Assembly: GCF_049075655.1 (NCBI RefSeq)
Contig: NZ_CP157522.1
Coordinates: forward strand, 640,001 to 704,000
DNA from: Methanothermococcus sp. Ax23
GTDB taxonomy: Archaea > AGJL01 > Methanococci > Methanococcales > Methanococcaceae
DNA length: 64,000 bases
Direction: 5' to 3'
Below, in pieces: positions 1-64,000 of this stretch. Both the position numbers and the translations under genes were made by a program. How positions within the stretch are numbered: the stretch's first letter is position 1; each line of letters starts with the position of its first letter. The notes under the pieces were generated by a model. It was not told the DNA's origin. It saw only the letters and a program-made list of their open reading frames with translations, and ran no database searches.

Positions 1-1830
1 ATTTATAAAGTGCATGGCATTTTTTGATTTATTATATATTTCCGTTATATCCTTTATTAAATCTTGATTTTTTTCAACATCGTATCCTAATGAGTATAAC
101 AACGGATAATATTCATCTATTGATATATATTTATTGATATTATTATTTTCTTCCTTATTCAATACATTATGACAGCATCCTATTAACTCCAAAACTCTCT
201 TTGCCTTTGTATTTTCCTCATACTTTGGATTGTATGGGATTAACCATGCGTCATTTTCTTCATCATAGTATCCATTCAATAGATAGTGTCTAAGCAACAA
301 TATGTCTTCCTTTGATACATCATGCCAGTAGTAAGTATATCTTGGATGTAGTGGCGTTTCAGTTTCTATTGCAAATTTTACAGCTTCTTTATGGCTTGGA
401 TTATTTATAAATTCCTTTTTATAACATATATTCTTTGAAATTAGTATTTTTTCATACCACTCCTCGCACCAACTGCTTGGAAGTATTGAGTGGTTGTTTT
501 CAAGGAAATCTCCAAAATTAACTAAAATATCTCCTAAGAATAGTATCTCTTCCACAGAGTCCCTATATTCCAATGCCTTTTCAATTGTGTCTATTTTTAT
601 TACATTTCCATTTTTTAATTTCACAATAGGCGGTTCTATGCTATCTACTGGGACAACACATGTTGCCTTTCCCGGTCTTTCAGTTTTTAACTGAGTTCCA
701 ATAGCCATAAAGTCATCTACCAAATACATAAGTGCAGGATGGAATCCATCCGTTGCAAATCCTGTATTTCTGCTTCTCCCATACCTTAATCTAAACCCCC
801 CTGCTTTTGAAGGATGGGCAAAAACTGGTCTTCCCGCAATTACTTCCCCTATAAACTTTGTAATTGCTTCGATTTCAACATCGTCGTATAATTTACTATA
901 TTCTTCAAATTCTTCATCATCCACTTCATTGACTTCATCGTCTAAGTTTTCCTTTTCGTTTTCATTTCCTTTTTCATCTTTTTTGCCCTTTAACTCCTTT
1001 AACCAATCCCATCCTTCAATTCCAAGTTTATCAACGTGCCTTAAAATTTTTGGAGCTTTTAAAAGCACACCTTCAACAAGTGCAAGGAGAGCTCCCCCTC
1101 TTATCTGATTAGTTTCTACTCTATCTAAATCCCTATGTCCGCTGACTTCAACATCGTCTGTGGCTTCCCCTGTAATTTCTATTGATATATTTTTTACTGC
1201 TGTTCTTATTTCCTCAGCTTTTGGAGAATACTGAAAGCTACCTACTTCTGATTGATATAAATCAACCTCTTCTACATATCTTTCTATTTCATCATCATTA
1301 GGTAAATATCTATTTAATCCCATGTTTTTTCGGACATAATCACCAACAAGAACGGCTAGTGCCTGAGCTGTCCCTCCTGCACTTCTAATTGGTCCTGCAA
1401 AATATATTGCTAAATACTCACTTCCATCCTTGTTCTTTTTTATTTTAACATGGGCAATACCTTCAAGGGGAGCTGCCACAATTCCTTCTGTGATTATTGC
1501 TAAGGCTGTTCTTACAGCCTGTTCCGCCAGTTCTTCCCTATTTCCACTGTTTCCAAATTTTCCCTCAACTATTTCTTTTGCAATCTCCAATGCAGCAGGT
1601 TCTTTACCGAGCTCAGAAACTAACTCCCTAATTCTCTCAGACACTCCTTTTGGACCTACAAGCCCTTCAACTCTATCTGCCATATCCTTCGCAAGTGGAA
1701 TTTCTACAAAATCAGATACATCATATCCTTTTTTTCTACACTCTTCCGCAATATTGTAAATTTCCTTAACATTCTCTAAAATATTTTTAAAATAAGATTC
1801 CATATTCTTAGAGGAGCTCACATGAAACAT
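1..1830 (-). CDS. polC: DNA polymerase D (II) large subunit DP2, 5' part; runs off the left edge
   Basis: Not in the ORF track because it is truncated. ATG at 1830 follows a GGTGA RBS. Translates [18 protein letters not shown]...[18 protein letters not shown]...[12 protein letters not shown]...[16 protein letters not shown]...[14 protein letters not shown], the DP2 N-terminal motifs. Confidence 0.95.
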
Positions 1831-1943
1831 ATCTTCACCATATTATAAAATTGTAGATTTAGTAAAATAATATGTCCATCAAATATAAATATTAAAGTAA
1901 GTATTAAGTATATCTAAATATATAAATATATATTTGTAAAAAA

Positions 1944-2192
1944 TATGGGCATGAGGACTATAGCCCGCCTTCTGTAATTTCGGCGACATTCAGCTAAGCG
2001 CTAAATGCTTGCACCCGTGCAGAATGGCCTCGTTTCACCGGCTCCTTGAAACTCCTCAATTTTCATATCATAGTCATCTGTTTCAAGGCCGTGTCGTTTC
2101 TATACACCATTCAATCCTTCTCAGGATATTATGCACATAATGGGTGGGCGGAGCTTCCTCCTAAATGGGAGTCGCCAGTCCTCTTGCCCATA
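1944..2192 (-). ncRNA. rnpB: RNase P RNA (archaeal type M)
   Basis: GC-rich island. Minus strand has a terminal helix UAUGGGCA...UGCCCAUA and the P4 signatures GAGGAAGCUCCGCC and ACAGAAGGCGGGCUA. About 250 nt, consistent with type M. Confidence 0.93.
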
Positions 2193-2252
2193 GTTAATAT
2201 ATTGTAAAATTACATTACACTCGAAAACTCGAAACTATATTGGATAAAAAAA

Positions 2253-2371
2253 TGGCTAACGGCGTCACCCTGTTCCCACCGAAAGGCAGTACTTAGGGTA
2301 TCGCTGGAGGGCTTAATTTCCGAGATCGGAACGGGATCGGATGTGGCACCTCCGCTATGACCGTTATGCCA
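2253..2371 (-). rRNA. rrf: 5S rRNA
   Basis: Minus strand TGGCATAACGGTCATAGCGGAGG...CCGATCCCGTTCCGATCTCGGAAATTAAGCC...GCCGTTAGCCA, directly downstream of 23S and followed by a T-run. Confidence 0.95.
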
Positions 2372-2423
2372 GAAAAAATAAAGCGGGCATAAGCCCCTAT
2401 ATCTTTAAGTGTCCAAGTATCCC

Positions 2424-5394
<2,971 letters not shown>

Positions 5395-7085: not shown

Positions 7086-7339
7086 TATTTGCTAAGCATA
7101 GCTTAGCAAATACTCTTTGGAGTCGGTCAAAAAGTTTTTGGAATTGACTCGGTCGTTACTAAGTATCACTTGGTTGCGGGCTTACATCAAACCTGAGCTC
7201 CTTTTCTCTCAGGCTATCATTGACTGCATAATATGATGGTGGTTTGGATGATGTATTGTTTTTAGGTTTGGAACAATATTATATATATGCAAAAATAATC
7301 CTTCAAAAAATTAACAATAACAATAAAAAAATAAAAAAA

Positions 7340-8356
7340 TCACTTATTCTTTACAATCTTTTCCAGATTATCAAGTTGTTCCGTAGTTCCAAACGCATAA
7401 AGCACATCATTAGAGGAGATTATAATATTGGGCGGTGGATTTGTTATCAACTCGTTGTCTTTTTTAATACCTATTATAGTAGCTCCACTTTCCTGCCTTA
7501 TTCTCGTTTCAGATAAACTCTTACCTGCCAGTCGAGAGCCTTCTTCAATCTTTATCTTTCTTATCTCTAAATCTTCATCATATTCATATTTAGCTATGGA
7601 CATAAAAGTAGATACAAAATCAAGTATATCTGGCTTTAATGCAAGTTCCGCCATCCTTAAACCCCCTATAACATAAGGAGAAACTACCCTATCTGCCCCT
7701 GCAATTAAGAGCTTGTCCATGGCCACTCTTTCATCGGCTTTTGCAATAATATAAAGATTTGGATTAAGTCTTTTTGCAGATAAGGTGATATATACATTAT
7801 CAGAGTCTCTTGAAACTGTTGAAATCAGGCCTTTTGCTTCTTTTATCCTTGCCTTTAATAATGTATCATCAAGGGTGGCATCACCCACAATATAATTAAA
7901 ATTCGGATTATCTTCGAGCTCATTTTCCAAAAGTTCCGCATTATTATCTATGACAACATATTTTGCTCCAGATTTTTCAAGTTTATCTGCAACAACTTTT
8001 CCACTTCTACCATATCCGCAGATAATATAATGATTTTTTAAATATTTTATTCTTTTATCCATGTTTCTCATCTGATTTGTTTTTTTAAAATAACCGCCTA
8101 TAAAAAATTCAGCAATATTTCCCAAGGCATACAATCCTATGCCGACGCCAAATAATATATACATGGCTGAAATGAGTTTCCCCAGTTCTGTCTTTGGCAC
8201 ATAATCTCCATAACCTACTGTTGAAATAGTGACTATTGAAAAATACAGTGCATCCAATGGCCTTAATCCTTCTATATTCATCATAACTATTGAATAGATT
8301 ACAATCGCAACTCCCATTACACCTATACTTAGTTTTATCCTATCTATAACTTCCAT
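7340..8356 (-). CDS. Potassium channel with RCK (TrkA-N/TrkA-C) domains, MthK-like
   Basis: Selectivity filter TISTVGYGD, two TM helices, Rossmann motif IICGYGRSG. Start moved to MEVIDRIK (8356); the upstream extension in the ORF track is AT-rich intergenic DNA. Confidence 0.92.
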   Translation of the reverse strand: MEVIDRIKLSIGVMGVAIVIYSIVMMNIEGLRPLDALYFSIVTISTVGYGDYVPKTELGKLISAMYILFGVGIGLYALGNIAEFFIGGYFKKTNQMRNMDKRIKYLKNHYIICGYGRSGKVVADKLEKSGAKYVVIDNNAELLENELEDNPNFNYIVGDATLDDTLLKARIKEAKGLISTVSRDSDNVYITLSAKRLNPNLYIIAKADERVAMDKLLIAGADRVVSPYVIGGLRMAELALKPDILDFVSTFMSIAKYEYDEDLEIRKIKIEEGSRLAGKSLSETRIRQESGATIIGIKKDNELITNPPPNIIISSNDVLYAFGTTEQLDNLEKIVKNK

Positions 8357-8469
8357 CTTACCACATATAATACATATAAATCCAAATACATCTATGAAAA
8401 TATAAATAATAATGATGTATAAATTAATTACTACCAACTATAAATTAATAAATATAATCAACATAAAAT

Positions 8470-10029
8470 ATGAAGATGATATTTATGGACATAGGCATAA
8501 TTGATATAAAAGGTTCATTACCCTGTTTTGAAAGTTTTGGGGGCCTACCTACAAAAATAATAGACGAAAACAACACTTCAGAAATTAAAGACTTAAACAT
8601 GCTGATTATACCCGGTGGGAGTTTAGTTGAAAGCGGTTCATTGAACGAAAAATTAAAAAAACATATAATAGAATTTGATGGAATAATACTTGGAATATGT
8701 AGTGGATTTCAAATATTATCTGAAAAAATAGATATTGGTAGAAAAAGTCCAGTTCCCATTGTTAAAGAAGGTTTGGGATTGTTGAATGTTGAATTTTCAC
8801 CACTTATTTGCACAGACGAAGTTAATTTTGAATTAAAAAATGACACTATTTTTGGAAAAAGCAATGATGCTGGAATGGGATTTCATTGCCACACATACGG
8901 CAATATAAAAATAACCAACAAAAAAACAAAACAACTATGTATTTCAAAAATTAAAAAATTAAACTACAAAATGGTTGGAGATGTAGATATCATATCCGGT
9001 GTTTATCATAAAAATATCTTTGGAACAATGGTGCATGGATTTTTAGATAACGAAAATATAAAAGAAAACTTGCTTAATTCGTTAAATATCGACGAAAATG
9101 AACGAGAGTTGATATTTAAAAAAAATAAGGACATAACTCAAAAATTAAAATCTAAATCTATAATAAACACCAATACTAATATGGTAAATAGTAAGGTTAA
9201 TATTAATAATAGGAGCTCCCCTTCAAAACATTCAAAAGAAACTAATGAAAAAAAAGGATTGATTCTTCTAGCAACTGGCTCCGAAAGTGGAAAAACTTTT
9301 CTAACAACATGTATAGTATCAAAATTGGATAAAAAAACATTTGTAGCAAAAATAGGTCCCGATGTGAGAGATATTGTTCCATCACTTTATATTTTAAGAG
9401 AACCTATGTCAAAATACAGCAGTATAAAAATCGCAGATAGGGGCTGGTGTGATGTTGATGATTTTTTAAAATTTGTTAAAAATTCAGATTATACATATTA
9501 TATTATCGAAGGAGTGATGGGTGCATTTACAGGAGCATTGAACAAAAAAAATTATAGTGGAGCCGAAATATCGAAAATATTGGGATTCCCTGTATATATT
9601 GTATCATCATGCAGTAAAAGCGGTATTGAAGGAGCATTTGTGGAAAGTTTTGGATATTATTCATTATTAAAAGAGATGGGAGTTAATGTTAAAGGAATAA
9701 TATTAAATAAAATTTATAACTTTGAAGTATTTGAGAAGGTTAAAAAAATAGGAGATGAAATTGGATTACATATAATAGGAGTTGGAAAAGCAAAAATGGA
9801 TAAAAGAGGTCTGATGCCAGAGGTTGAGATAGATTATGAAAACTTCTGTAAAAATGCCATGGATTTGGATATAAAGCTCGAAATTCCGAAAATTGAAATA
9901 GATAATAATAACGATAACAATGCAAAATTAGAGGAAAACCTTTGCATTTCATCACCCTCCGCTCCGCTCCAAGAAGATAAAGATTTTGAATATTATTTAA
10001 AAAAATGGATTAATAATCATTATTTTTAA
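8470..10029 (+). CDS. CobB/CobQ-like amidotransferase with N-terminal class I GATase and C-terminal CbiA-like P-loop domain
   Basis: IIPGGS, GICSGFQ (catalytic Cys) and GTMVHG in the N-half; ATGSESGKT and IIEGVMG in the C-half. Confidence 0.75.
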
Positions 10030-10060
10030 GAATTATAACTTATAACTATCAAGGGATAGT

Positions 10061-12085
10061 ATGGATGAAAAAAAGATAGAGCAGTTAAAACCATATATTA
10101 CCAACTATATAAGAAACTTCCACAGTGATGACATTATATCAGAAAAGGAAAGGGTAGTAATAGACTTGGAGAAATTATATAATTATGGAATAGTGGATTT
10201 TATAGAATATATTTATGAAAATCCATACGATGGATTAAAGATTTTAGAAGATGCATACGTGGAAGCATACTACGCACTAAAAAATGAAAATCCAAACTGC
10301 TCCATCACAATAAAAAACATACCCGAAGTATTCAAAAAATACAACAACAAAACATTAACAATTAAGGATATTAAAAGCAGTACATTGGGAAAACTTATAG
10401 AATTTGAAGGAATTATTGTATTAGCAACTAAAATAAAATCAATATTAAAAAAAGCAGTATATGTATGCAATAATTGTGGAAATAGGGTTGTTGTAAATAT
10501 CGATAATCCCTATGAATATAATCCAGAGTCTAAATCATGCACCAATGAAAAATGTAATGGAATATTACAGATAGTAGAAAACGAATCGGAGTATATTGAC
10601 TTCCAGGAATTAAAAGTTCAACAACCGCTGGATTTAATGGATGACCCAGAGGAACCTCCAAAATATATATCTGTATTTTTAGAAAATTCGCCGGGCATAT
10701 TCTGCGGAAGGGTAAAAATAATAGGAATACCCATCAAATACCAAAGTAGTAAAAAACTACCAATATATGACATATACATAAGAGGGCTAAATTGCGAAAT
10801 AATAGAAAATAAATTAGAAAGTGAGCTCACCGAAGATGACATTGAAAAAATAGAAAAAGTTGCCAAACACCCAAAAGTGCTGGATATATTATCAAATGAA
10901 CTCATCCCAGAAATAAAAGGATATGAAACTATAAAGAAGGCGATATTTTTACAGCAGATAAAAGGAGTTAAAAAAGGGAATAAAAGAGCCGACAGCCACA
11001 TACTTTTAATTACCGACCCGGGGATTGGAAAAAGTGTTATGCTCAGAAAAATAGCGGAGCTCCCGGGAAACCTATATGGTTCTGTAACCACGGCATCAGG
11101 AGTTGGTTTAACCGCAGCAGTTGTTAGGGAAAAAACTGAAATTGGGGATGATACGTGGGTTATAAAACCAGGTTTGTTGGTTAAAGCAAACAAGGGGACC
11201 GCATGTATTGACGAGCTAACTGTTAATAAGGACCTTCAAAGTTTTGTTTTAGAGGCTATGGAAAGCCAAACAATTCACATTAATAAAGGGGGTATAAATA
11301 CAAAGCTTCCAGCAGAGTGTGCAATTCTTGCTGCATGCAACCCAAGATGGGGAAAATTTGACCCCAATGTTTCAATACCTGAACAGATAAACATACCTGC
11401 CCCTATGTTAAGTAGATTTGATATAATATTTCCAATAAAGGATGAAGTAGATAGGGCAAAGGACAAAGACATAGCAAAACATATTATCAATATCCATAGA
11501 AAATATTTGAAGAAGGACGAAGGAGACATAAAAGTCGATAAAGAGACTAAAATTAATGGTGTTGAAATCGACGATGAATTTATCATAAAATATATATTAT
11601 ATGCTAGACAGAAAAAGCCAATTATATCAAAAAATGCAGAGGATATTTTAGTAGAATACTACACAAACATGAGGAAGAGCTCTATACAAATAACCGCAAG
11701 GCAGCTTGAAGCTGCGATTCGACTTGCTGAAGCTCATGCAAAGGTGAAATTAAAGGATGTTGTGGAAGAAGAGGATGCAGAAGAGGCAATAAATATAATA
11801 ATGGAATCACTAAAAGAGATAGCCTATGATCCAGAAACTGGTATGATTGATATAGGGAAGATTACGGGAGAATCAAACAAGGATAAAAATAAAATGAAGG
11901 AGATATACACAATTATTAAAAAACTCTCAGAAAAGAACAACGAGGGATTGGTGTTATTCGAAGATATATTGGAAGAAACTAAAAAGAAGGGAATGGATGA
12001 AGAAGAAACCGAGAACATCATTAAAAAATTATTAAAGAGGGGGGACATCGACGAACCAAGGAATGGAAAATACCGAATTATATAA
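10061..12085 (+). CDS. mcm: Replicative helicase MCM (no intein)
   Basis: Zn finger CNNC...CTNEKC, Walker A DPGIGKS, ASGVGLTAAV, Walker B CIDE, arginine finger LSRFD, ITARQLEA, C-terminal wHTH. Confidence 0.96.
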   Translation: MDEKKIEQLKPYITNYIRNFHSDDIISEKERVVIDLEKLYNYGIVDFIEYIYENPYDGLKILEDAYVEAYYALKNENPNCSITIKNIPEVFKKYNNKTLTIKDIKSSTLGKLIEFEGIIVLATKIKSILKKAVYVCNNCGNRVVVNIDNPYEYNPESKSCTNEKCNGILQIVENESEYIDFQELKVQQPLDLMDDPEEPPKYISVFLENSPGIFCGRVKIIGIPIKYQSSKKLPIYDIYIRGLNCEIIENKLESELTEDDIEKIEKVAKHPKVLDILSNELIPEIKGYETIKKAIFLQQIKGVKKGNKRADSHILLITDPGIGKSVMLRKIAELPGNLYGSVTTASGVGLTAAVVREKTEIGDDTWVIKPGLLVKANKGTACIDELTVNKDLQSFVLEAMESQTIHINKGGINTKLPAECAILAACNPRWGKFDPNVSIPEQINIPAPMLSRFDIIFPIKDEVDRAKDKDIAKHIINIHRKYLKKDEGDIKVDKETKINGVEIDDEFIIKYILYARQKKPIISKNAEDILVEYYTNMRKSSIQITARQLEAAIRLAEAHAKVKLKDVVEEEDAEEAINIIMESLKEIAYDPETGMIDIGKITGESNKDKNKMKEIYTIIKKLSEKNNEGLVLFEDILEETKKKGMDEEETENIIKKLLKRGDIDEPRNGKYRII

Positions 12086-12191
12086 TATCAAAAACCTTCA
12101 ACATTATCAGCTTCATCGAATATAATGGGCATATTATAATTAAATCCATTCGATAAAAAAATATTAATGTAAAAAGAATACTTGTGATACA

Positions 12192-13247
12192 ATGAACATA
12201 ATATATCAGACCGCATCAGATTTTTTAACAAATGATATATGGGTCATGCCAACAGATAGGAAAAATATACTTGAATTAGATGAAAGCGGAGAAATTAAAA
12301 TATTTAACAATATTCCAGTTTTAAGGGTGCTTGCAACACCCTCTTTAAAAAAAACAATTAGTAGGTTAGTTTATACCATAAAAGATAAAATGGTTTTATT
12401 TAAAAATAAAGACGAAAATATTAATTTAAATATATTTAAATACTTGGACAAAATGTACTTCAAAACCCCAAATAAAAATTATTATAGGACAAAAAAAGCA
12501 TGGTATAGATTCATTGGCGATTTATTTGAAGACATCAACAATTGGAATTTTAAAAAGGTCATTACTAAAACCATAATACTACTTAAAATATTAAAGCCCG
12601 TGTTAGTATTTGATGTCCATAATGTTTCAAAATGGAACCATATAGAAGGTTTTAAAAAATTTATAAACACACTTCATAAACATAACATCAGCATCGTAAT
12701 AAGATGCCCAGTTGAATCCATAAACCACATAAAAAAAACATTTGAAAACTCAAAAATAAACAATATTGCCGTGATGAAGTACTATGGAAAACTAAAAGGA
12801 TATAATATCTCAACAAAAGTAGCAGAATATTTATTAAAAATATCCAATGGGAATATAAACATACTAAAATTAATATTGCCGCATTCAAAACGGGATTTAA
12901 AGACATTGCGAGATTTAAAAATACCATGGTTAAAAATAATTCCATTGATTGTTCCAAAAAAATATAAACGCATAATGGAAATAGTATGCAGCATGAAAAA
13001 ATTCAGCATAAGTAATATTGAAAAATACATCAATTTAAAAATACCTACAATATATGCATATTTAAGTGATTTAGTTGATATGAAACTGCTAAAAAAGAGA
13101 AGAATTGGAAGAAATTTAATATACAAATTAAACCTAAATAAAGATGAGTTATTCTATTTTATTAACAATATACCTTATAAAGACTTACATTACAGTGTTT
13201 TTTTAGACTCTCAGTCAATACATAATGGATTTCGGCTTTTCGGATAG
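12192..13247 (+). CDS. Hypothetical protein: degenerate AAA+-like region plus C-terminal winged HTH
   Basis: Walker-B-like PVLVFDVHN, lid-like VAEYLLKISNGNINIL, wHTH IPTIYAYLSDLVDMKLLKKRRIGRNLIYKL. No Walker A. Confidence 0.65.
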   Translation: MNIIYQTASDFLTNDIWVMPTDRKNILELDESGEIKIFNNIPVLRVLATPSLKKTISRLVYTIKDKMVLFKNKDENINLNIFKYLDKMYFKTPNKNYYRTKKAWYRFIGDLFEDINNWNFKKVITKTIILLKILKPVLVFDVHNVSKWNHIEGFKKFINTLHKHNISIVIRCPVESINHIKKTFENSKINNIAVMKYYGKLKGYNISTKVAEYLLKISNGNINILKLILPHSKRDLKTLRDLKIPWLKIIPLIVPKKYKRIMEIVCSMKKFSISNIEKYINLKIPTIYAYLSDLVDMKLLKKRRIGRNLIYKLNLNKDELFYFINNIPYKDLHYSVFLDSQSIHNGFRLFG

Positions 13248-13394
13248 TATGATATTTTATTGAATAACACATAATCATGGTTTTTTATTATCAAATATGT
13301 TTTGTGTATGGTTATGACACACTTCTATTTTTACCATAAGGTTTTAAAATAATACTATACGAAATGAGAATATAAATGATTTTCTTAAAAGTGT

Positions 13395-13762
13395 TTCGGG
13401 TTTTCGAACTTCATGTATGTATAGGAAATAAAAATGTATGTCCAAAAACAAAAAAATAAAATTATTCCAGACGTTTTATATTGTATTATTTTTTTGCACT
13501 TAATATGTATATAATCAAAAAAAAATGAATTATACATTATAATATTACATATAACATTACATTATACATATAACTAAATAAATAAAACAAAATATAAATA
13601 AAATCAGATTAAAAAACCGTATATTATGTATTAAATTTATATACTAATGTTTAAGTAAAATATAAGCATTTTCCATTGAATAATTTTCTACGAATAATTG
13701 AAAATCATAATTTTTTTGGAGATTTTCCAGGGCCATACATACATCATGCTCGAAAACCCGAA
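13395..13762. repeat. ~30 bp inverted repeats flanking a ~310 bp AT-rich tract (candidate origin element)
   Basis: 13395-13424 TTCGGGTTTTCGA-acttc-ATGTATGTAT-aG versus reverse complement of 13733-13762 TTCGGGTTTTCGA-gcatg-ATGTATGTAT-gG. Confidence 0.8.
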
Positions 13763-13768
13763 TTACTA

Positions 13769-14290
13769 TTATTTTTGATTTTCATAATACTTTTTCAGAT
13801 AGTTAATATGCCTACAATCCGAGGATTGACATGCTACACACCACCAGGTGCCTGTTTTTGATTTAAAAACCGTTGATATCTCCTCTCCATTTTCATCATA
13901 GAATTTAAATGAGATTCCACCAAATTCATCGGTGAATTTCCTTATTTCAAAACCTATTCTATTTACTGGATAATACTTGGTTCTAAATTTCTTTTTCGAT
14001 AGACTTTCGAAAAGACCCGAAAAACTAAGGTCAAATATTTCAGGGCATACTCTCTTTAAAATTGCAATTCCTTTTGTAGTTAATGAGTATAATACTTTAT
14101 GACCGTTTCTATCTCTTTTTGTTAAGTTTAAAGCAGTGCAAAGCCTTAAAAATTGTGATGGAATGCCCTTAGAGATTTTTAGGTTTTCGGTTATTTGCTG
14201 GGGATAGGCTGTGCCACGAATCAACACATAATGTAAAATTAATTTCCTTATTGGAGTAGATACTGTTTTATTTATGATATAATCCATCAT
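13769..14290 (-). CDS. ArsR-like winged-HTH protein with C-terminal Zn-binding motif
   Basis: STPIRKLIL...QITENLKISKGIPSQFLRL...KRDRNGHKVLYSLT; C-terminal WWCVACQSSDCRH (CxxC-x4-CxH, SWIM-like). Confidence 0.75.
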   Translation of the reverse strand: MMDYIINKTVSTPIRKLILHYVLIRGTAYPQQITENLKISKGIPSQFLRLCTALNLTKRDRNGHKVLYSLTTKGIAILKRVCPEIFDLSFSGLFESLSKKKFRTKYYPVNRIGFEIRKFTDEFGGISFKFYDENGEEISTVFKSKTGTWWCVACQSSDCRHINYLKKYYENQK

Positions 14291-14918
14291 ACCACCATTT
14301 TTTTATAAATTACGTATTTATAATTGATAATTTGTAATTTAATAAATTGTTTAGTTGTATTTAGTATAATTTATCCTTAGATTCATTTCATGATTTTTTC
14401 ACATTGTGATTTACTATCAAATTCCATACTATATATAATTTTTTGTCAAAGAATATATTTATAATTCAGTTTTTATCGGATGTTCTTATTTTTTACGGGT
14501 AGTGGTTTTGCTATTTTTTATTTAGTTAGATATATTATGTGTAATATTATTTAGCATTATTGATTCATAGTTTTTTTTATTATATATGTTATATTCACAT
14601 TTTTAATTTTCATATATATACTAAAAATTCAATTAAAAAAAACTTTATAATTATAGTGATAGTTTATATATTTTTTAAATTTTTATTAAAGTTATTTTTA
14701 TAGCATTTTTGAGAATGTATTTCAAAGGTTTTTCAATTTTATCATTAGATTCACATTTTAATTTATTTTAAATATTTTATTCATATTTTATTTAAATTAA
14801 TGATTAGAGTTAAATAATCTTATAAATAAATGTATAAATTAATGAATATATACAATAACAAGTAATTTCGAGGTTTCTGGGTTTTCGAATAGATGATGGT
14901 TCAAAATATTAGAAATAT
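14291..14918. other. Very AT-rich intergenic tract with short direct repeats; candidate replication origin next to the cdc6-like gene
   Basis: Repeats TTAGATTCAT (14377), TTGATTCAT (14560), TTATATTCACATTTT (14589), TTAGATTCACATTTT (14745). Syntenic with the region upstream of M. jannaschii MJ0774, which I recall as the computationally proposed origin. Confidence 0.6.
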
Positions 14919-14934
14919 CCGAAAAGTATAAAAA
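14919..14934 (+). promoter_or_regulatory. BRE/TATA promoter of the cdc6-like gene
   Basis: CCGAAAAGTATAAAAA matches the Methanococcales BRE+TATA pattern, about 45 bp upstream of the ATG. Confidence 0.6.
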
Positions 14935-14977
14935 CAGGTTTTACAGTAGGATGATATACTTTAATATTGGTGGTATT

Positions 14978-16207
14978 ATGTTGGACCCTATTGAATTTAT
15001 ACAAAATGCTTCATCAATAACAAAAAAATCAATGAATAGGTTGAAATTAAAGACTAATCCTTTTTCTGAAAAACCAATAAGGGGCAATACCAAGTTTTTT
15101 GTAGGTAGAACCACAGAATTAATGGAAATTGCCGATATATTAGGTGCTGCCCAGTATGGTAGTGTTGCCAATGCCGCCATAGTTGGAACAAAAGGTATTG
15201 GTAAGAGCTCCCTTTTGAATGTTATATATTATGCAGCAAAAAGGCAGAACCACTGGACTGTGGAATTAGAGGCTTCTCAGATTACGCCAAGACAGTTTTT
15301 AATACAGTTAATGCATGGGATTATAAGGGATAATATATTTACTATGGATGGCACCTTATCAACAGATTATTTAGAACACTCTCAAAAGATAATAGATATA
15401 TATCGAAGATTGGATTCATATTCTGATAAAACTCCCGTTCATTATCCAAGGGAGAAAATAGAAAGGGATTTGGATTATTTGTTGAATAATGTAAAAGAAG
15501 ATGGTAAATTATGCATAATTTTAATTGACGAAGCAGACCAATTTGCTAAAAAAGGATGTTTGGGGCTTTTGCAGTTTTTCCACTCATTTTTGTATGAAGA
15601 TGGTATTTTAGCATTTTTTGCAGGTTCCCCAACTCTCATGGAAAATTTAACTAGGGTATCTCCTGCAATGAGGGATAGATTACCTAAAATAATAAATATG
15701 CCTCCGCTATCAAAAGAAGAATCCTATGATTTAATATTAAGGAGATTAAAAGATGCCCAAATTCCAAAGGCAAAAGGTTATGAACCATTCACTGAAAATG
15801 CAGTGGATGTGATTGTTGAAGAATGTGATGGTATTCCAAGGAAAATTATTATGACGTGTTCAGAGGCAATCTCCATAGGATTAAAGAAAGGATTAACTGA
15901 GATAGATGAAGATATTGTTAAAATGGCTATGAAAAAATTAGGAATAAGCGTGGGTCATCAAATCTTGAATCACCTAACCCCTGCTCAATCAAAAATAGTT
16001 AAAGCACTGGCAAGTTTTGGAGGAAAATCAACAGTAACTGAACTTGCAAAAGTTTTAAATAATTCACCTGGGACAGTTGGGACCCATCTATCGGATATAT
16101 ATGAGATGGGATATATTTATAAAGAACGCTCTGGAAATAATGTGTATTATACATTATCTAAGGAATTGAATGAGGTTTTAATAAATAACGATGATGAAGA
16201 TGATTAA
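14978..16207 (+). CDS. Divergent Orc1/Cdc6-like AAA+ ATPase with C-terminal wHTH (MJ0774 family)
   Basis: NPF...FVGR, Walker A GTKGIGKS, Walker B IILIDEAD, sensor-2 DGIPR, C-terminal HTH. Start set to MLDPIEF after GGTGGT. Neighbouring gene order matches MJ0774-MJ0783 as I recall it. Confidence 0.8.
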   Translation: MLDPIEFIQNASSITKKSMNRLKLKTNPFSEKPIRGNTKFFVGRTTELMEIADILGAAQYGSVANAAIVGTKGIGKSSLLNVIYYAAKRQNHWTVELEASQITPRQFLIQLMHGIIRDNIFTMDGTLSTDYLEHSQKIIDIYRRLDSYSDKTPVHYPREKIERDLDYLLNNVKEDGKLCIILIDEADQFAKKGCLGLLQFFHSFLYEDGILAFFAGSPTLMENLTRVSPAMRDRLPKIINMPPLSKEESYDLILRRLKDAQIPKAKGYEPFTENAVDVIVEECDGIPRKIIMTCSEAISIGLKKGLTEIDEDIVKMAMKKLGISVGHQILNHLTPAQSKIVKALASFGGKSTVTELAKVLNNSPGTVGTHLSDIYEMGYIYKERSGNNVYYTLSKELNEVLINNDDEDD

Positions 16208-16296
16208 TATAATTAAATATATTAAAATCTTCAAAAGACATTAATGTTAAATACAATAATTTATCATTATTCTTTAATTAATCAAATGGTGAGTCT

Positions 16297-17238
16297 ATGT
16301 TTTGTGATATTCAAGCAACAGAACCTGATATAAAAGTTTCACTCACAAGGGTTGGAGTAACCAATTTAAAAAAACTGGTTAAAATAACGAGGGAATCTAA
16401 AAGACCTATAATTTTACTACCAACTTTTGAAGTATTTGTTGATTTGCCGAGCTCCCAAAAGGGAATACATATGTCAAGAAGTCCTGAGGTAATTGAGGAG
16501 GTAATAGAAAACCTTGTCAATAAAGAAACCTATGGTATAGAGGAGCTCTCGGTTGATATTGTAAAAAAACTTTTTGAAAGGCATGAGTATGCCAGCAGGG
16601 CAGAAGTTTTGATGCACAGCGACTATATGATGGAAGAAAAATCTCCGATAACTGAAAAAAATTCCCAGGAAATTTGTAAGATTATTGGAAGGGCATATGG
16701 AGTAAAGGATTCAGAAGGCAACATTGTTATTAAAAAAATGGTTGGTGCGGAGGTTGTTGGAATTACAGCATGCCCATGTGCTCAGAATCTTTTAAAGGAA
16801 AAAGCAGTGGATAATTTAAAGGAAAAAGGATTTTCGGATGAAGACATCGTTAAAATATTGGATTCAGTTGTTATTGCAACCCATAATCAAAGGGGAATTG
16901 GAACCATAATGATTGAAGTGCCTGATGGGTATGACATCAGCATAGGTAAAATTATAAATATCATTAAAAAATCCATGAGCGGAGAGGTATATGAGCTATT
17001 AAAAAGAGTTGATGAAGGTTATGTCGTAGAAACGGCACACAATAACCCAAAATTTGTTGAAGATTGTGCAAGAGAGATGATTAAGCGGGTTGTAGATGAA
17101 TTTAACTATCTTCCAGATGACACTGAGGTCCTAGTTAGACAGGTTAATAAAGAAAGTATTCATAGACATGATGCTTTTGCAGAGAGATATTCTAAAATGG
17201 GTGATTTGAGGGCTGAATTGGAACTAAATGGTAAATAA
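16297..17238 (+). CDS. mptA: GTP cyclohydrolase MptA (FolE2 family; methanopterin biosynthesis)
   Basis: KGIHMSR, ITACPCA, ATHNQRG, NPKFVED, ESIHRHDAFA. Confidence 0.93.
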   Translation: MFCDIQATEPDIKVSLTRVGVTNLKKLVKITRESKRPIILLPTFEVFVDLPSSQKGIHMSRSPEVIEEVIENLVNKETYGIEELSVDIVKKLFERHEYASRAEVLMHSDYMMEEKSPITEKNSQEICKIIGRAYGVKDSEGNIVIKKMVGAEVVGITACPCAQNLLKEKAVDNLKEKGFSDEDIVKILDSVVIATHNQRGIGTIMIEVPDGYDISIGKIINIIKKSMSGEVYELLKRVDEGYVVETAHNNPKFVEDCAREMIKRVVDEFNYLPDDTEVLVRQVNKESIHRHDAFAERYSKMGDLRAELELNGK

Positions 17239-17397
17239 TATTAAGTTATTTTATAATATATATAGAACATTTACCATATTTGCTGCATATTCTATATTTT
17301 ATATTTCATATTTCGTTGTTCTATTACTGTATGATTGTATTATGCCTATTTCTAAGTAATTTTATTTTTTCAAATCTCTTTAATTTTAAGTGATTAT

Positions 17398-18543
17398 ATG
17401 AAAGTGCTTGTTATTGGAGTTAATACACGTCCTGTGGTTAATTCGGCTAAAAAATTGGGATATGAGGTTTATTCTATTTCGTATTATAATCCAGTAGATT
17501 TAAACGCCGATAAAAAAGAATATCTTATAAATGATAAATATCATGGGTGTTTTAGAGAAAATTATAATGAGAAAGAATTATTATCTCTTGCCGAGTATTA
17601 TGTGGATGATATTGATTGTATATTTGTATGTTCAGGCATATTTGAAAGCAAACATTCAAAAACACCCGATTGGAATGTTGTTGGGAATCCACCAAAAAAG
17701 ATTAAAAGGATGAGTAATAAATATTACATTACAAAAAAATTAGAAAATTTAGGTTGTAGCGTCCCTACAACATATATTGCTTACAATTATAGCCAACTTG
17801 AAAAGTATTTGTATGATTTAAAGTCTATTGTTGTAAAACCCATTTGTGGAAGTGGCGGAATAAATGTTCATTCTATAACTTTAAATACTTTCACGGATAA
17901 ATTATATAATTTGCTAAAAAATTTGGAGTACCCTGTAATTGTTCAAGAAATGATAACATCAGATAGTTTCAGTGCATCATTTGTAGGTTCAAATTTTATC
18001 ACATTTAATAAACAGATTATTAAAAACAACATGTATGTTGGAAATATAACTCCTTATGTCCCAAATCTAAAAACAAACAACAAAGGAGTCCAATGTATTG
18101 TAGATTCATTTCGAGAAGTTATAGAATCATTTGATTTAGCTGGGATGAATGGTATTGATTTTATGATTAAAGACGGAGCTCCTATTATCATAGAACTAAA
18201 TCCCCGAATATTAGGAACATTTGAAACAATAGAATTGTCGTCAAACAAAAATCTTGTAAAATATATGATTGAAAATTCAGAAAATCAAGGATTTTCATCA
18301 TGTGGTGACTTAAAACCAAAAACTCAGTATATGAAAAGGATATTGTTTGCAGAACAAAAACTTATATGCCGCATTGAAAAACAACAAAATATTTTTGACA
18401 TCCCAATGTATGATACAATAATAGAAAAAAATGAACCATTAGCCACAGCGATTGGGAAAAATAATGATGAAATAAACAAGGCAGTTGATAGTATTTCAAA
18501 GATGGTGATTAATTATGAAATTAAACAAAGAAGAGATATATGA
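17398..18543 (+). CDS. ATP-grasp family protein
   Basis: [29 protein letters not shown]. Confidence 0.8.
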
Positions 18544-19114
18544 TATGCTTGATAATCCATTGGTTCAGCAAGTTCTACTTGAAGTATTGGATGAGGATGT
18601 GAGTGGATTTGAAGTTTTAGCTGTGCTTATAGATTTAGAGGAAGTTACCGACGATGAAATTTCAAGACAGTTAAATTTAAAACTAAATACTGTTAGGAAA
18701 TTATTATACAAATTATATGATGCAAGACTTGTGGATTACGACAGAGAAAAGGACGAAGAAACAAATTGGTACACATACACATGGAAGCCTGCCCTTGAAA
18801 AATTGCCTGCTCTCGTTAAGAAGAAGACTCAGCATATATTAAAGGAACTTAAAGAGCAGCTAATTATTGAGGAAAATAATATGTTCTTTTACTGCCCAGG
18901 TTGCGAATTTAAATATACTTTTGAAGAAGCCATGGATTATGGATTTAGGTGTCCGCAGTGTGGGGGAGCTCTCAAAGAATATAATAATAAAAATGATATA
19001 AAGATACTTAAAGAGCAGATAAAATTCTTAGAAGATGAATTAAAATTAAATCCATTATTTTTTACGTCTGAAGGAACGGGAAATCAAAGAAAAGAAATAA
19101 GAGCAACTGTTTAA
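18515..19114 (+). CDS. tfe: Transcription factor E
   Basis: wHTH VTDDEIS...[13 protein letters not shown]...WYTYTW and Zn ribbon CPGC...FRCPQCG. Confidence 0.95.
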
Positions 19115-19209
19115 TTAAATTTTTAATTTAAATATTTACAACTTATAATTTACAATATATGGATGATTTATATATTTTATTTTAATCATATATTTTACTG
19201 GGTGATTTT

Positions 19210-20717: not shown

Positions 20718-20721
20718 AATT

Positions 20722-21873: not shown

Positions 21874-21887
21874 AAAATCACCAGAAG

Positions 21888-24850: not shown

Positions 24851-24877
24851 AATATCGCCCCGTCTGATAGTATAATT

Positions 24878-27732: not shown

Positions 27733-27814
27733 TCCTCCGAGCTCCTTAAATCATGTATTTAAAATTATTAATTTATTAATTGTTAATCTATGATATATAA
27801 ACAATCACTACTAC

Positions 27815-51064: not shown

Positions 51065-54035
<2,971 letters not shown>

Positions 54036-54385
54036 GGGATACTTGGACACTTAAAGATATAGGGGCTTATGCATCGGGGAAAAATATATTTTTTTTAAAC
54101 ATATAATCCATATATATTAATATACGAATTTATAATATATCTATTTTAACAGCATATATATTTAGATTAAAGTTTAAATACAACGGAGCTCCTATAAATT
54201 TTGTATGATTCTATTTTGAAGAAATAGTTTAGCTACAATAATTATTTTATATTCATAATTTTGAATTTTAAAACTTAGAAGAAAGGAATTTATAAAATTC
54301 TAATAATCAGCATCATGAGATATTATTATTGAAAATTTTAAAAAAAAGAAGAAAAATAGATAAAAAAGAAAAAAAGATAAATATT

Positions 54386-55886: not shown

Positions 55887-56014
55887 ATTGTGAAAAAAAT
55901 TAAAAATTGTATTACCACTGTAAATAAACTAAAAGAGCTCAGATTAATATAAAATAAATTAGTATTTATAAAAAATTAAAAATTAATGTTATAAAATAAT
56001 AGATATTGTGTATT

Positions 56015-58276: not shown

Positions 58277-58499
58277 TTCACCAATTTATGCAAATATATG
58301 AAAATTATTTACTGAACAATATAAAATCGAATAGTCATTTAAAAATCCTAAAAAATAATATAAATAATTGTTTAATAAATAAAATAAAATAATAAGAATA
58401 TTTAATAAAAAAATATACTATTATGTTAATATATTAAAAAATAATATACAGGATAAATAATATACAGGAGCTCATATCATAATATTATTAGAAATTAAT

Positions 58500-61757: not shown

Positions 61758-61805
61758 GATTCCACCAAAATAAGAATTATATCAATATTACAATGGATAC
61801 TAGTT

Positions 61806-61858
61806 AATTATCATTATTAATCATTATAATTTACACATAAATAAGATATATATACCTT
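61806..61858 (-). promoter_or_regulatory. TATA box plus 28 bp operator-like element upstream of cdhA
   Basis: Plus strand AATTATCATTATTAATCATTATAATTTA (61806-61833) and AGATATATATACCTT (61844-61858), identical to 55830-55857 and 55872-55886. Confidence 0.72.
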
Positions 61859-62190
61859 TTTATTATTTTATAAAAAAATAGTATTACTAAAAATTATATA
61901 ATCGTCAGGCTGTAAAATTACTTAAAAGATGATTAAACGTTTTTTATGCCATATCTGCCATTAATATTTAATCTTCGTGGTTTTTATTGGAATTATGGGC
62001 CTATCTTGCAAATTTTATTTCGGTAAATGACGATATTAGTTGTATTTATATAATACATAGCAATAAATAAATGAAAAAACTAAATAACATTGATTATAAA
62101 GATGTGGTAAGAATAAAAATAATAATAAAAACAATAAAAAACAATATATATTTAAAAACAATAAACTATAACAAATTTTGAGGTGAAAAA

Positions 62191-63183
62191 ATGAAAGTAT
62201 ATTATGACGAAGATACAAATTTTGATGCTGTAAAGGATAAAACAATAGCAGTAATAGGATATGGTAGCCAAGGTAGAGCTCAGTCATTGAACATGAAGGA
62301 CAGCGGTTTAAATGTGATAGTAGGTTTAAGACCAAACGGAGCTTCATGGGAAAAGGCAAAAGCAGATGGACACACAGTAATGACAGTAGAAGAAGCCGCA
62401 GAAAAGGCAGACATAATACACATACTCATACCTGATGAAGTTCAGGCAGAAGTTTATGAAAAACAGATAAAACCATACTTAAAAGAAGGAAAAACATTAG
62501 GATTTTCACACGGATACAACATACACTACGGATACATTGTTCCACCAAAAGGAGTAAATGTAATTATGGTTGCTCCAAAATCCCCAGGTGCTATGGTTAG
62601 AAAAACATACGAAGAAGGTTTCGGTGTTCCAGGTTTAGTATGTGTTGAAAAGGACGAAACAGGAGATGCATTAGATATAGCTCTTGGAATGGCCAAGGCA
62701 GAAGGTTTAACAAGAGCAGGAGTAATTAAAACAACATTCAGAGAAGAAACAGAAACAGACCTATTTGGAGAACAGGCTGTATTGTGTGGTGGAGTAACAG
62801 AGCTCATAAAGGCAGGATTCGACACACTTGTTGAAGCAGGATACTCACCAGAGATGGCATACTTTGAAACATGCAACGAGTTAAAATTAATCGTTGATTT
62901 GATATACCAAAAAGGACTTGCTGGAATGTGGCATGATGTTTCAAACACCGCAGAATACGGTGGATTAAGCAGAAGAGAAAGAATAATAAACGAAGAATCA
63001 AGAAAAGCAATGAGAGAAATCTTAAAAGAAATACAGGATGGAAGATTTGCAAGAGAGTGGGCATTGGAAAACATAAGTGGTAGAGCTCACTTAAATGCTA
63101 TGAGAAGATTGGAAAGCGAGCATTTACTTGAAACAACAGGTAAAAAATTGAGAAAAATGTGTGGATTGGAAAAAGACGAATAA
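62191..63183 (+). CDS. ilvC: Ketol-acid reductoisomerase
   Basis: [45 protein letters not shown]. Confidence 0.97.
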
Positions 63184-63273
63184 GACGAATAAATTCGATT
63201 AATAATATATATTCCAAATATATTTATTTTTTAATTATTAATTTTTAAACTTTAAATTTTAACTTTTAGTGGT

Positions 63274-64000
63274 ATGATGGACTTAATCATTATCCTTTCA
63301 CTGGTTATTTTGGGAATGTTCATTGGATTTATATCCGGTTTATTGGGAATAGGCGGCGGTTTTATACTTGTGCCAATATTAATCTATTTATTTGACTTCA
63401 TGGGGGTTTCTGATGATATATCTGTAAAAATGGCAGTAGGAACAAGTTTGTTTGTAATTTTTTTAACTTCAATTGCAGGAGCTCATAAACATAGTTTAAA
63501 CAAAAATGTAATTTGGAAATACTCATTAATCCTTGGATTATTTGGTATATTAGGTTCAATTGTTGGTGTTAAGGTAGTTGTAGATTATTTAAGTGGAAAT
63601 TTACATAAAGTATTATTTGGCATATTTTTAATTCTTATTTCATTAAATATAATATACAGCAATTTTAAAGATAAGAATAATTTAGATATGATTAACAATA
63701 TAATCAATACATGCCATAACATTAATTATAAGAATGTTGGTATTATGGGTTTTTTAACTGGTTTTTTATCATCTATTTTTGGAATAGGCGGCGGAATAAT
63801 AGTTGTTCCCTTTTTAAATATTTTTTTAAAGTTTCCGATAAAATCAGCAATTGGAACATCCCTTGGCATGATGACCATTATTTCACTTACGGGGTTGTTG
63901 GGATATATGATTAATCCCTATCCATTTGATTATAATTTATATAATATTGGGTATGTTTCTTTATTTGCTGGATTGATTGTAGCTCCTATTGCCATGATAT
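63274..64000 (+). CDS. Sulfite exporter TauE/SafE family membrane protein, truncated at the right edge
   Basis: Not in the ORF track. Translates MMDLIIILSLVILGMFIGFISGLLGIGGGFILVP...AVGTSL...SSIFGIGGGIIVVP...AIGTSL (duplicated GIGGG/GTS motifs). Confidence 0.85.
   Translation, partial: MMDLIIILSLVILGMFIGFISGLLGIGGGFILVPILIYLFDFMGVSDDISVKMAVGTSLFVIFLTSIAGAHKHSLNKNVIWKYSLILGLFGILGSIVGVKVVVDYLSGNLHKVLFGIFLILISLNIIYSNFKDKNNLDMINNIINTCHNINYKNVGIMGFLTGFLSSIFGIGGGIIVVPFLNIFLKFPIKSAIGTSLGMMTIISLTGLLGYMINPYPFDYNLYNIGYVSLFAGLIVAPIAMI

Follow-up and report, generated by a model that had tools for sequence, protein, structure and literature searches.

GAGCTC is a highly iterated palindrome in one clade of archaea, possibly a DNA-level watermark kept by a sequence-specific reader

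Introduction

Few non-coding signals of prokaryotic genomes are as strong as hyper-abundant short motifs, of which HIP1 and uptake sequences are examples, and HIP1 is without an accepted mechanism. The highly iterated palindrome HIP1, GCGATCGC, and the alternate highly iterated palindromes (HIPs) of cyanobacteria were described by Elhai 2015 (PMC4390886) and by Xu, Lawrence & Durand 2018 (PMC5861425). According to the latter, it had not become clear in 20 years of study whether HIP1 has a function at all. Here, we describe GAGCTC, a 6-bp palindrome that is strongly over-represented in the window, a 64,000-nucleotide stretch of an archaeal chromosome (G000:C1:640001-704000), and throughout the genome to which it belongs (G000; 1.67 Mb in two contigs, 31.9% GC). 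G000 encodes two MCR-alpha genes, indicating that the host is a methanogen. A first-pass annotation of the window had noticed the motif, likened it to HIP1 and to DNA uptake sequences and proposed a signal for methylation-directed repair, chromatin or DNA uptake.

We found no published description of GAGCTC abundance in archaea in a search that covered few subscription journals, and older palindrome surveys may mention it. Elhai 2015 (PMC4390886) contains no 'archaea', 'GAGCTC' or 'Methano'.

Results

GAGCTC exceeds every null model inside and outside genes

The G000 genome contains 2,089 copies of GAGCTC (2,085 of them chromosomal, the other 4 in the small contig), or one per 0.8 kb, with a zero-order ratio of observed to expected copies (O/E) of 16.75. 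It is the top hexamer of the genome under each null model tried; under the maximal-order Markov model its z-score is 62.3, and that of the next word is 17.9. Similar hexamers are not equally abundant, since the next palindrome genome-wide reaches 2.6-fold, and 41% of all AGCT tetramers in G000 belong to GAGCTC.

In the window, an exact count gave 81 copies, the first at position 1089 and the last at 63479-63484, in line with the roughly 80 reported by the first-pass annotation. The expectation of about 4 given there was slightly low, since the window has 34.9% GC rather than ~30% and the zero-order expectation is 6.3. The enrichment itself stands: dinucleotide-preserving shuffles of the window (n = 100) contain 5.07 copies on average (sd 2.51, maximum 15), none of the 100 reaches 81, and GAGCTC ranks first for over-representation among all window hexamers (12.9-fold).

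Genes were represented by 1,510 heuristic open reading frames (ORFs) of at least 100 aa, which make up 85% of the chromosome. These hold 1,929 sites, and frames 0 (Glu-Leu), 1 and 2 account for 1,093, 616 and 220 of them. Shuffling of synonymous codons within genes gave an expectation of 189±13 sites (30 shuffles), shuffling of codon order gave 112±9, and a codon-aware null model that keeps the sites frozen outside the codon pools gave ~44. Codon usage is therefore no explanation, as the first-pass annotation had also argued. Each of the three frames is 7-13-fold above the synonymous shuffles, 28% of the Glu-Leu dipeptides are written GAG-CTC (1,093 of 3,903, with 66 expected) and 39% of the CTC codons lie inside the motif (1,093 of 2,805).

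The DNA outside the ORFs contains 157 sites where 9.4 are expected. Sorted by the orientation of the flanking genes, the observed and expected numbers of intergenic sites are 100 and 8.0 (tandem), 24 and 2.4 (convergent) and 29 and 1.8 (divergent). The cores of divergent promoter regions, which lie more than 80 nt from both start codons and are probably non-transcribed, contain 16 sites where 1.3 are expected, and this enrichment argues against an RNA-level cause. The small contig carries 4 sites where 0.12 are expected, a number reached in none of 2,000 simulations. Enrichment is of similar size in genes, between genes, in the promoter cores and on this small replicon. The excess thus resides in DNA and not in codons, peptides or RNA. 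The small contig (G000:C2) is circular, with 7,732 bp, a 98-bp terminal overlap and 27% GC; the ORFs of this plasmid comprise one of 668 aa and several of 120-230 aa.

Five of 40 genomes carry the motif, one of them in an altered form

Among 40 genomes of the order, five (G000, G003, G010, G012 and G013) hold 1,321-2,089 sites, and the other 35 hold 4-229. The depleted relatives include genomes labelled as the same genus (14 sites in G005, 9 in G008, 16 in G002 and 4 in G007), and counts range from 4 to 115 in close relatives whose proteomes are similar. In the sister lineage G005, the core of the motif is avoided (O/E of 0.14 for AGCT and 0.08 for GAGCTC), with no other palindrome above 2.7-fold.

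G010 uses the octamer GGAGCTCC: it accounts for 1,259 of the 1,645 sites and is often extended to GGGAGCTCCC, and the reversed control has 0 copies. In the other four enriched genomes the octamer makes up 13-16% of the sites. One descendant has thus changed its preferred word, a 6-mer, into an 8-mer. Family f2 (G019-G035) shows a mild octamer excess, with 16-35 copies of GGAGCTCC per genome vs 0-4 for the reversed control, and GAGCTC counts there (49-229) are at roughly the expected level.

A rooted tree from a six-protein set (RNA polymerase, EF-2, S7 and S12; 3,152 columns, five distant archaeal outgroups) joins G000 and G013 and leaves G005 outside, with 98% bootstrap support. A 68-gene quartet pairs G000 with G010 and G013 with G005 with 96% bootstrap support (441, 334 and 315 informative sites). 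The combined topology is (((G000+G012, G010), G013), G005), G003 not being among the genomes compared, and is consistent with a single origin of the enriched genomes. These trees place five genomes with uneven branch lengths, and by the genus labels G005, but not G013, shares a genus with G000. A 753-aa protein encoded in the window was dropped as a phylogenetic marker because it has paralogues.

Several 4-bp palindromes are extremely avoided in G000, a pattern that the window shares (O/E of 0.03 for GATC, 0.07 for GTAC, 0.10 for ACGT, 0.14 for CTAG and 0.13 for CGCG and GCGC), and many 6-mers have zero copies in the window, for example AGATCT, CTCGAG, GTCGAC and GTTAAC. Avoidance differs among relatives, with GATC at 1.2 and AGCT at 0.14 in G005. 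Such variation suggests that restriction systems have had a long history, particular to each lineage.

Recognition is all-or-none and two-fold symmetric

Perfect GAGCTC is ~44-fold above the codon-aware null, whereas variants that differ from it at one position are at 0.85-1.5-fold. Only variants with GATC or GCGC in them depart from this range, being avoided for other reasons. A provisional conclusion that one-off variants are depleted, and that near-cognate sites are actively converted, was withdrawn because the codon-aware null with frozen sites shows the variants to be neutral. The word is read in an all-or-none manner and with two-fold symmetry; in the former respect it is closer to what is typical of restriction-modification enzymes than to graded binding.

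Flank preferences are symmetric and extend only to ~±5, and the two halves behave nearly independently. Flank information is at most 0.22 bit at ±1 and ~0 beyond ±5, with G at -1 in 38% of the sites; complementarity between the flanks is slightly above independence at ±1 and ±2, with none further out. With so little information in the flanks and no complementarity beyond ±2, a hairpin or cruciform, a longer repeat and an element of the repetitive extragenic palindrome (REP) or miniature inverted-repeat transposable element (MITE) type are ruled out.

Sites arise by point substitution and are lost slowly

Codon alignments joined G000 ORFs to 279 orthologues in G012, 312 in G010, 307 in G013 and 263 in G005; the first 400 kb each of G012, G010 and G013 and the complete G005 genome were covered. 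Only 2-4 of ~417 sites (<1%) lie opposite alignment gaps, which rules out an origin by insertion or as a footprint. The commonest counterparts in the relatives are the synonymous Glu-Leu hexamers GAATTA, GAACTT and GAATTG, which differ from the motif at 2-3 positions. The sites have therefore been built by point substitution, in many cases by AT-to-GC changes against the AT bias, and mostly at positions where the encoded protein stays the same.

G012, which has 84% nucleotide identity to G000, shows an identical hexamer at 76-85% of the sites, compared with 42% for the background and 37% for other Glu-Leu hexamers. At Glu-Leu dipeptides conserved between G000 and G012, the probability of a site given a site in the other genome is 0.86, other codon pairs are identical at 0.50, and the probability of a site given a non-site is 0.063. 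The loss rate of sites is ~5-fold below that of comparable synonymous codon pairs. Gains (26) and losses (29) balance, occupancy is 0.338 in one genome and 0.333 in the other, and gain and loss are in equilibrium for this closest pair. The force that maintains the motif is still active or was active until recently.

For G010 and G013, raw retention of G000 sites equals the background. At conserved Glu-Leu dipeptides, sharing of sites with G000 is 3.8-fold (G010) and 2.2-fold (G013) above independence. Sharing of 2-4-fold at this depth combined with background-level raw retention points to partial inheritance followed by heavy turnover. Conservation of Glu-Leu is no lower where the motif encodes it than elsewhere, and occupancy of Glu-Leu climbs with gene conservation from 24% to 35%, with 17% in accessory ORFs. 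The motif takes over existing dipeptides instead of forcing new ones.

One part of the window was compared site by site:
7300..27299, plus strand: comparison stretch with 21 sites.

Among the aligned sites of this stretch, those kept as GAGCTC number 12 of 17 in G012, 2 of 16 in G010, 2 of 16 in G013, 0 of 10 in G005 and 0 of 10 in G004.

Sites are placed at random along the chromosome and are scarce in accessory islands

Spacing between sites is exponential-like, with a mean of 797 bp and a coefficient of variation (CV) of 1.09, and counts in bins of 1 kb and of 10 kb alike have a variance-to-mean ratio of 1.03, as for a Poisson process. No long-range periodicity was found, the top power of a 1-kb-bin spectrum (9.98) staying below the 95% permutation maximum (12.87) in a test that is cruder than that of Xu et al. 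A ~10-11-bp periodicity in the flanks is faint (amplitude 0.0027 vs 0.0004 in controls). Nucleosome positioning was rejected on this faint signal, and the chromatin role proposed in the first-pass annotation finds no support in these data.

ORFs that have a homologue in G005 contain 1.48 sites per kb, those that have none contain 0.93, and three accessory islands have 0-0.15 GAGCTC per kb. The two longest site-poor stretches, G000:C1:113847-124945 (11.1 kb, no site) and 1342926-1355392 (12.5 kb, one site), are both low-GC (26-27%) clusters of glycosyltransferase-like genes, as would fit a recent exchange of gene clusters for surface glycans. Core operons such as the archaellum and chemotaxis clusters have a few gaps of 5.5 kb, no more than chance would produce among 2,085 intervals. 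The first tenth of genes holds 132 sites vs ~195 in each other tenth.

A Cas-like gene cluster at 809-816 kb of G000 has no G005 homologue and no GAGCTC. Two probable CRISPR arrays lie at G000:C1:~147996-151274 and ~1163691-1166300, with the same repeat translated in several frames.

No known methyltransferase or repair enzyme follows the motif

Scans for PF00145, PF01555, PF02384 and PF02086, together with two ortholog profiles, found no DNA methyltransferase common to the five enriched genomes. In G000, no C5 methyltransferase (PF00145) was found, and the DNA methyltransferases comprise three Eco57I-like enzymes, a single SPPY N4/N6 enzyme, a type III Mod and a type I HsdM. Profiles across the relatives were made for the SPPY and the 567-aa Eco57I-like enzymes, out of a list that also comprised the type III Mod, HsdM, two type IIG enzymes of 1,070 aa and McrBC. 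The SPPY enzyme, next to which lies a 245-aa ORF without a Pfam match, was rejected as a candidate, as it is present in G003 plus five low-count genomes; the 567-aa enzyme was found outside G000 in G003 only and was rejected as well. The family scan of G012 gave no PF01555 or PF00145 DNA methyltransferase. G010 has a single PF01555 enzyme, of 453 aa, which was not found in G000, G012 or G013, and nothing of PF02384 or PF02086 beyond housekeeping RNA or protein methyltransferases.

Repair enzymes gave a similar picture. Vsr (PF03852) is in 0 of 31 genomes, in a search whose control gave matches in 3 genomes. MutS (PF00488) is in 0 of the 19 family f1 genomes searched and in none of the five enriched genomes. 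NucS (PF01939) was found in none of the five enriched genomes and within family f1 is above the cut-off only in G017. In the sister family, MutS is found in 5 of 12 genomes and NucS in 6 of 12. On gene content, family f1 seems to lack both known routes of mismatch repair. RE_SacI (PF09566) was in 0 of 31 genomes, a weak negative given that its control matched in no genome.

Among the G000 ORFs, 294 have no G005 homologue and 94 have only a weak one; 83 of the screened ORFs have good matches in G010 or G013, on partial data. This differential screen gave three DNA-related leads: a TGT-like cluster, a PLD/Nuc-like protein and an McrBC pair (McrC match). A screen of small ORFs (40-99 aa) returned mostly translated CRISPR repeats and nothing convincing.

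The first two leads are the following:
G000:C1:1537329-1542518: TGT-like cluster of four genes, for DUF6884, a helicase resembling UvrD, a PD-(D/E)XK nuclease whose C terminus carries a Cys cluster, and a TGT-like protein that scores 33.5 bits to PF01702.
G000:C1:1153260-1153847: PLD/Nuc-like protein of 196 aa with a single HKD motif, PLDc_2 at 94 bits and a hydrophobic N-terminus.

The TGT/DpdA-like gene was rejected: it is present in G000, G010, G013 and the low-count G028, and G012 and G003 do not have it. The cluster has the look of a module for DNA modification or defence; of the accessory islands, the one that carries it is the densest in GAGCTC (2.74 per kb). The 196-aa protein looks like a membrane-anchored Nuc-type nuclease; it is in all five enriched genomes and in seven others too (12 of 31, all family f1), and was rejected for that reason. 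Transformation of Methanococcus maripaludis requires a secreted, membrane-anchored nuclease of another family (PMC10133366).

Sites and features of the window

GAGCTC starts at the following window positions (as the word is a palindrome, strand is undefined):
Sites 1-16: 1089, 1609, 1814, 3736, 7195, 7916, 9213, 10823, 11057, 11677, 15205, 16449, 16543, 18176, 18966, 19240.
Sites 17-32: 19417, 19478, 19573, 22026, 25510, 25725, 25783, 25994, 26699, 27049, 27525, 27739, 28243, 28829, 29304, 31415.
Sites 33-48: 31750, 32307, 32857, 33364, 33379, 33613, 34296, 34667, 35536, 35953, 36388, 36511, 36870, 37315, 37395, 37826.
Sites 49-64: 38218, 39855, 40356, 40954, 42216, 43459, 44198, 44921, 45643, 45694, 46508, 47345, 47489, 48554, 48630, 49259.
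Sites 65-81: 52718, 54186, 55319, 55631, 55935, 56905, 57483, 57682, 57970, 58070, 58468, 60263, 60548, 62276, 62800, 63083, 63479.

By location, 72 of these are in ORFs of at least 100 aa, 2 are in 23S rRNA and 7 are elsewhere. The ORF sites occupy all six combinations of strand and frame (20 in +0, 17 in -0, 12 in -1, 10 in +1, 7 in -2 and 6 in +2), which bears out the three frames and both strands of the first-pass annotation. The 48 complete ORFs of the window hold 68 sites, compared with 7.5±2.5 when synonymous codons are shuffled (200 shuffles, maximum 15). The annotation had also pointed to four isolated intergenic sites and to a single site in each rRNA operon; these proved accurate, the former lying outside ORFs of at least 100 aa with 80-nt flanks of 10-19% GC and the latter both lying in 23S genes.

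Individual features are as follows:
27739..27744, no strand: intergenic site, reads the octamer GGAGCTCC, flank GC 0.16, outside ORFs of at least 100 aa.
24878-27346, minus strand, and 28025-29413, plus strand: divergent ORFs that flank site 27739, with a second intergenic GAGCTC at 27525.
54186..54191, no strand: intergenic site, lies 148 nt downstream from the second 23S gene, reads GGAGCTCC, flank GC 0.19.
55935..55940, no strand: intergenic site between two minus-strand ORFs, flank GC 0.10.
58468..58473, no strand: intergenic site between two minus-strand ORFs, flank GC 0.14.
3736..3741, no strand: sole site of rRNA operon 1, inside the 23S gene (2421-5400, minus strand).
52718..52723, no strand: sole site of rRNA operon 2, inside the 23S gene (51059-54038, plus strand).
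7195..7200, no strand: pre-16S site of operon 1, ~110 nt upstream of 16S, outside ORFs and mature RNAs.
49259-49264, no strand: pre-16S site of operon 2, mirror copy of 7195, ~115 nt upstream of 16S, outside ORFs and mature RNAs.

The 16S genes contain no GAGCTC. Since chance alone would give 0.89 sites per 23S and 0.47 per 16S gene, the one site per 23S and none per 16S indicate that rRNA is not enriched. The two rRNA operons are inverted and ~42 kb apart (window positions 1949-7085 and 49374-54038), and a tRNA sits in the 16S-23S spacer of each. A 5S gene (2254-2368) follows operon 1 only and is adjoined by an RNase P RNA gene (1949-2187). Two adjacent ORFs of 462 and 575 aa (window positions 28025-31208) have no homologue in the complete G005 genome; the 462-aa ORF holds three GAGCTC and the 575-aa ORF none.

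Discussion

A proposed reader that biases repair or conversion

A DNA-level force acts on each GAGCTC site independently and on every resident replicon, in one clade, and its specificity is changeable. Our leading explanation, put forward tentatively, is that GAGCTC is a lineage-specific highly iterated palindrome, a DNA-level watermark kept by a sequence-specific reader that biases repair or conversion. A clade-specific protein with restriction-enzyme-like specificity would read GAGCTC as a symmetric dimer and would bias the outcome of repair or gene conversion toward the allele that carries the site, either between the many chromosome copies reported for these archaea (polyploidy) or between cells. 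The outcome would be molecular drive, which would require neither DNA methylation nor a benefit from any single site. An intracellular or recombinational bias is favored by the effect on the plasmid, by Poisson rather than even spacing and by the neutrality of one-off variants. It is conceivable, though doubtful, that this is the first archaeal 'genomic watermark', in which a methylation-free, restriction-enzyme-like reader drives its own word to ~2,000 copies with a specificity that can shift; its routes would be biased recombinational repair, gene conversion between chromosome copies and DNA exchange between cells.

Several points weigh against a reader of this kind. No reader protein was found: every profiled candidate failed the test of presence and absence, in a gene comparison that covered the complete G005 genome and the first 400 kb each of G012, G010 and G013. 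MutS, NucS and Vsr were not recognized in the five enriched genomes, and a repair bias would thus require machinery that is not known. The ORF set is heuristic, and the DNA counted as non-coding may hold small genes. Finally, faster gain and slower loss of sites are equally predicted by selection on each site and by biased uptake followed by recombination.

Alternative explanations

One of the latter alternatives, which we consider unlikely, is a DNA-uptake signal similar to the uptake signal sequences (USS) and DNA uptake sequences (DUS) of bacteria: a transformation receptor would prefer DNA containing GAGCTC, and recombination would then spread the motif. The density of one per 0.8 kb is near the USS spacing of ~1 per kb (PMC7811141), origin by point substitution has been described for uptake sequences (PMC1939737), and accessory genes are site-poor and rRNA is not enriched, as is the case for uptake sequences (PMC2817400, PMC7811141). 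Natural transformation exists in M. maripaludis and M. voltae (PMC10133366), which is relevant here only if the genome of the window belongs to their order. The octamer of G010 would be a lineage dialect, a methyltransferase would not be needed, and the small plasmid could itself gain by being taken up. However, uptake sequences are reported to be significantly evenly spaced (PMC1939737, PMC7811141), whereas GAGCTC is Poisson (CV 1.09, variance/mean 1.03), and singly mismatched uptake sequences are over-represented in a graded manner (PMC1939737), whereas one-off variants of GAGCTC are at 0.85-1.5-fold. A 6-bp palindrome is also shorter than known uptake sequences, and occupancy rises with gene conservation, whereas uptake sequences are reported to prefer poorly conserved genes (PMC2817400). 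For archaea, PMC10133366 mentions no uptake specificity and uses the term 'uptake sequence' 0 times. The uptake signal raised by the first-pass annotation thus keeps a place among the candidates, while the even spacing and the over-represented one-mismatch forms of known uptake sequences are both absent.

Also improbable in our assessment is that GAGCTC is the selected binding site of an abundant DNA-binding protein, a 'self' marker with a small fitness benefit per site; variants of this idea are a Chi-like stop for a helicase-nuclease, a nucleoid protein site and protection from a defence system. Retention of ~2-fold over background relative to the close relative is the argument used for selection on HIP1 in Xu et al. 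2018 (PMC5861425). Symmetric, all-or-none recognition and the enrichment of the plasmid fit a binding site as well, and a self/non-self marker predicts the scarcity of sites observed in recently acquired islands. It would be demanding, however, for each of ~2,000 sites to be selected strongly enough to hold three AT-to-GC changes against mutational bias. The sites show no positional pattern and only the faint ~10-bp periodicity in the flanks, and the orientation skew that defines Chi is impossible for a palindrome. A clade-specific DNA-binding protein was not found, the PLD/Nuc-like gene being in the five enriched and seven other genomes.

We judge a HIP1-type mechanism to be quite unlikely. 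An orphan methyltransferase acting on GAGCTC or on its AGCT core would here be coupled to a methylation-dependent repair ratchet, as in the model of Elhai 2015. As a phenomenon, HIP1 is the closest match: a GC-rich palindrome, ~1 per kb, ubiquitous and with lineage variants (PMC4390886). Methyltransferases of GAGCTC exist elsewhere, namely M.AspJHL3I (type II, N4-methylcytosine, gaGCtc) and predicted 5-methylcytosine enzymes (PMC4752239). The avoidance of AGCT by G005 (O/E 0.14) suggests that enzymes reading the AGCT core circulate in the group, and all-or-none specificity suits enzymes of the restriction-modification type. Against this, G000 has no PF00145 enzyme and its profiled SPPY and 567-aa Eco57I-like enzymes are not common to the five; G012 is without a PF01555 or PF00145 DNA methyltransferase, and the only PF01555 enzyme of G010 is missing from G000, G012 and G013. 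Vsr is in 0 of 31 genomes, MutS in 0 of 19 family genomes and NucS in 0 of 5 enriched genomes. As the family scans gave no fitting methyltransferase, a methylation-linked process would need an unrecognized enzyme family. Gene content thus gives no support to the methylation-directed repair proposed in the first-pass annotation, and the co-occurring orphan methyltransferase or Vsr-like nuclease that it suggested looking for is not common to the enriched genomes.

That the motif is a by-product of coding, RNA structure or composition (codon-pair bias, the Glu-Leu peptide, GAGCUC in mRNA or copies of a repeat or mobile element) is highly improbable: frame 0 is the commonest (1,093 of 1,929 coding sites) and the first tenth of genes is site-poor (132 vs ~195), but all three frames are 7-13-fold over synonymous shuffles, intergenic DNA and the probably non-transcribed promoter cores are 10-16-fold enriched, the lack of flank information beyond ±5 bp and of complementarity beyond ±2 excludes a repeat or hairpin, <1% of the sites face gaps and so are not insertions, and close relatives with similar proteomes have 4-115 sites.

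Implications

The archaeal example adds to the known hyper-abundant motifs a sharp on/off split (5 of 40 genomes; at least 1,321 sites vs at most 229), a natural specificity variant (the octamer of G010) and no detectable link to a methyltransferase. This combination suits a search for the responsible gene by comparative genomics and a test of drive vs selection. If GAGCTC is indeed a watermark kept by a reader, the 5-vs-35 contrast in culturable methanogens could make the 30-year-old question of the origin of HIPs testable. In practice, SacI and related enzymes would cut the enriched genomes about every 0.8 kb, the motif distinguishes native from recently acquired DNA in these genomes, and codon-usage and codon-pair statistics of the enriched species are distorted by it (39% of CTC codons).

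Comparison with known systems

The analogy to HIP1 and uptake sequences drawn in the first-pass annotation is apt for density, reading frames, intergenic occurrence, restriction to a clade and the existence of a dialect; it fails for a cognate methyltransferase and for even spacing. GAGCTC resembles HIP1 in being a short, GC-rich palindrome at ~1 per kb that occurs in all frames and between genes with no gene-level role, in the sharing of positions between close genomes and in a word that varies by lineage. Over-representation is 15-300-fold for HIP1 and 17-fold (zero-order) or ~44-fold (codon-aware) for GAGCTC. Unlike HIP1, GAGCTC belongs to an archaeal host, is a different and shorter word, shows no outer-position bias among its one-off variants and has positions that are weakly shared between deeper lineages. 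A cognate methyltransferase is reported wherever a HIP is abundant (PMC4390886), whereas none was found for the GAGCTC clade, and HIP1 has a periodicity of 10-90 kb (PMC5861425), whereas GAGCTC has none.

With the USS of Pasteurellaceae and the DUS of Neisseriaceae, as characterized in the papers cited above, GAGCTC shares a density of ~1 per kb, an origin by point mutation, lineage dialects, scarcity in new genes, rRNA that is not enriched, a low protein cost and the sufficiency of molecular drive. USS and DUS are asymmetric, 9-12 bp long and have extended flanks, whereas GAGCTC is a 6-bp palindrome. They are evenly spaced with over-represented mismatch forms in those sources, whereas GAGCTC is Poisson-distributed with neutral one-off forms.

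In the Dcm/Vsr system of Escherichia coli, a repair bias that favors the word of the methyltransferase is the one well-understood route by which a site of restriction-modification type comes into excess, with a modest effect. GAGCTC differs from this system in that G000 has no C5 methyltransferase and Vsr is in 0 of 31 genomes. Restriction-site avoidance in the same group of archaea is the counterpart of opposite sign: the same core is under strong, lineage-specific pressure at the DNA level.

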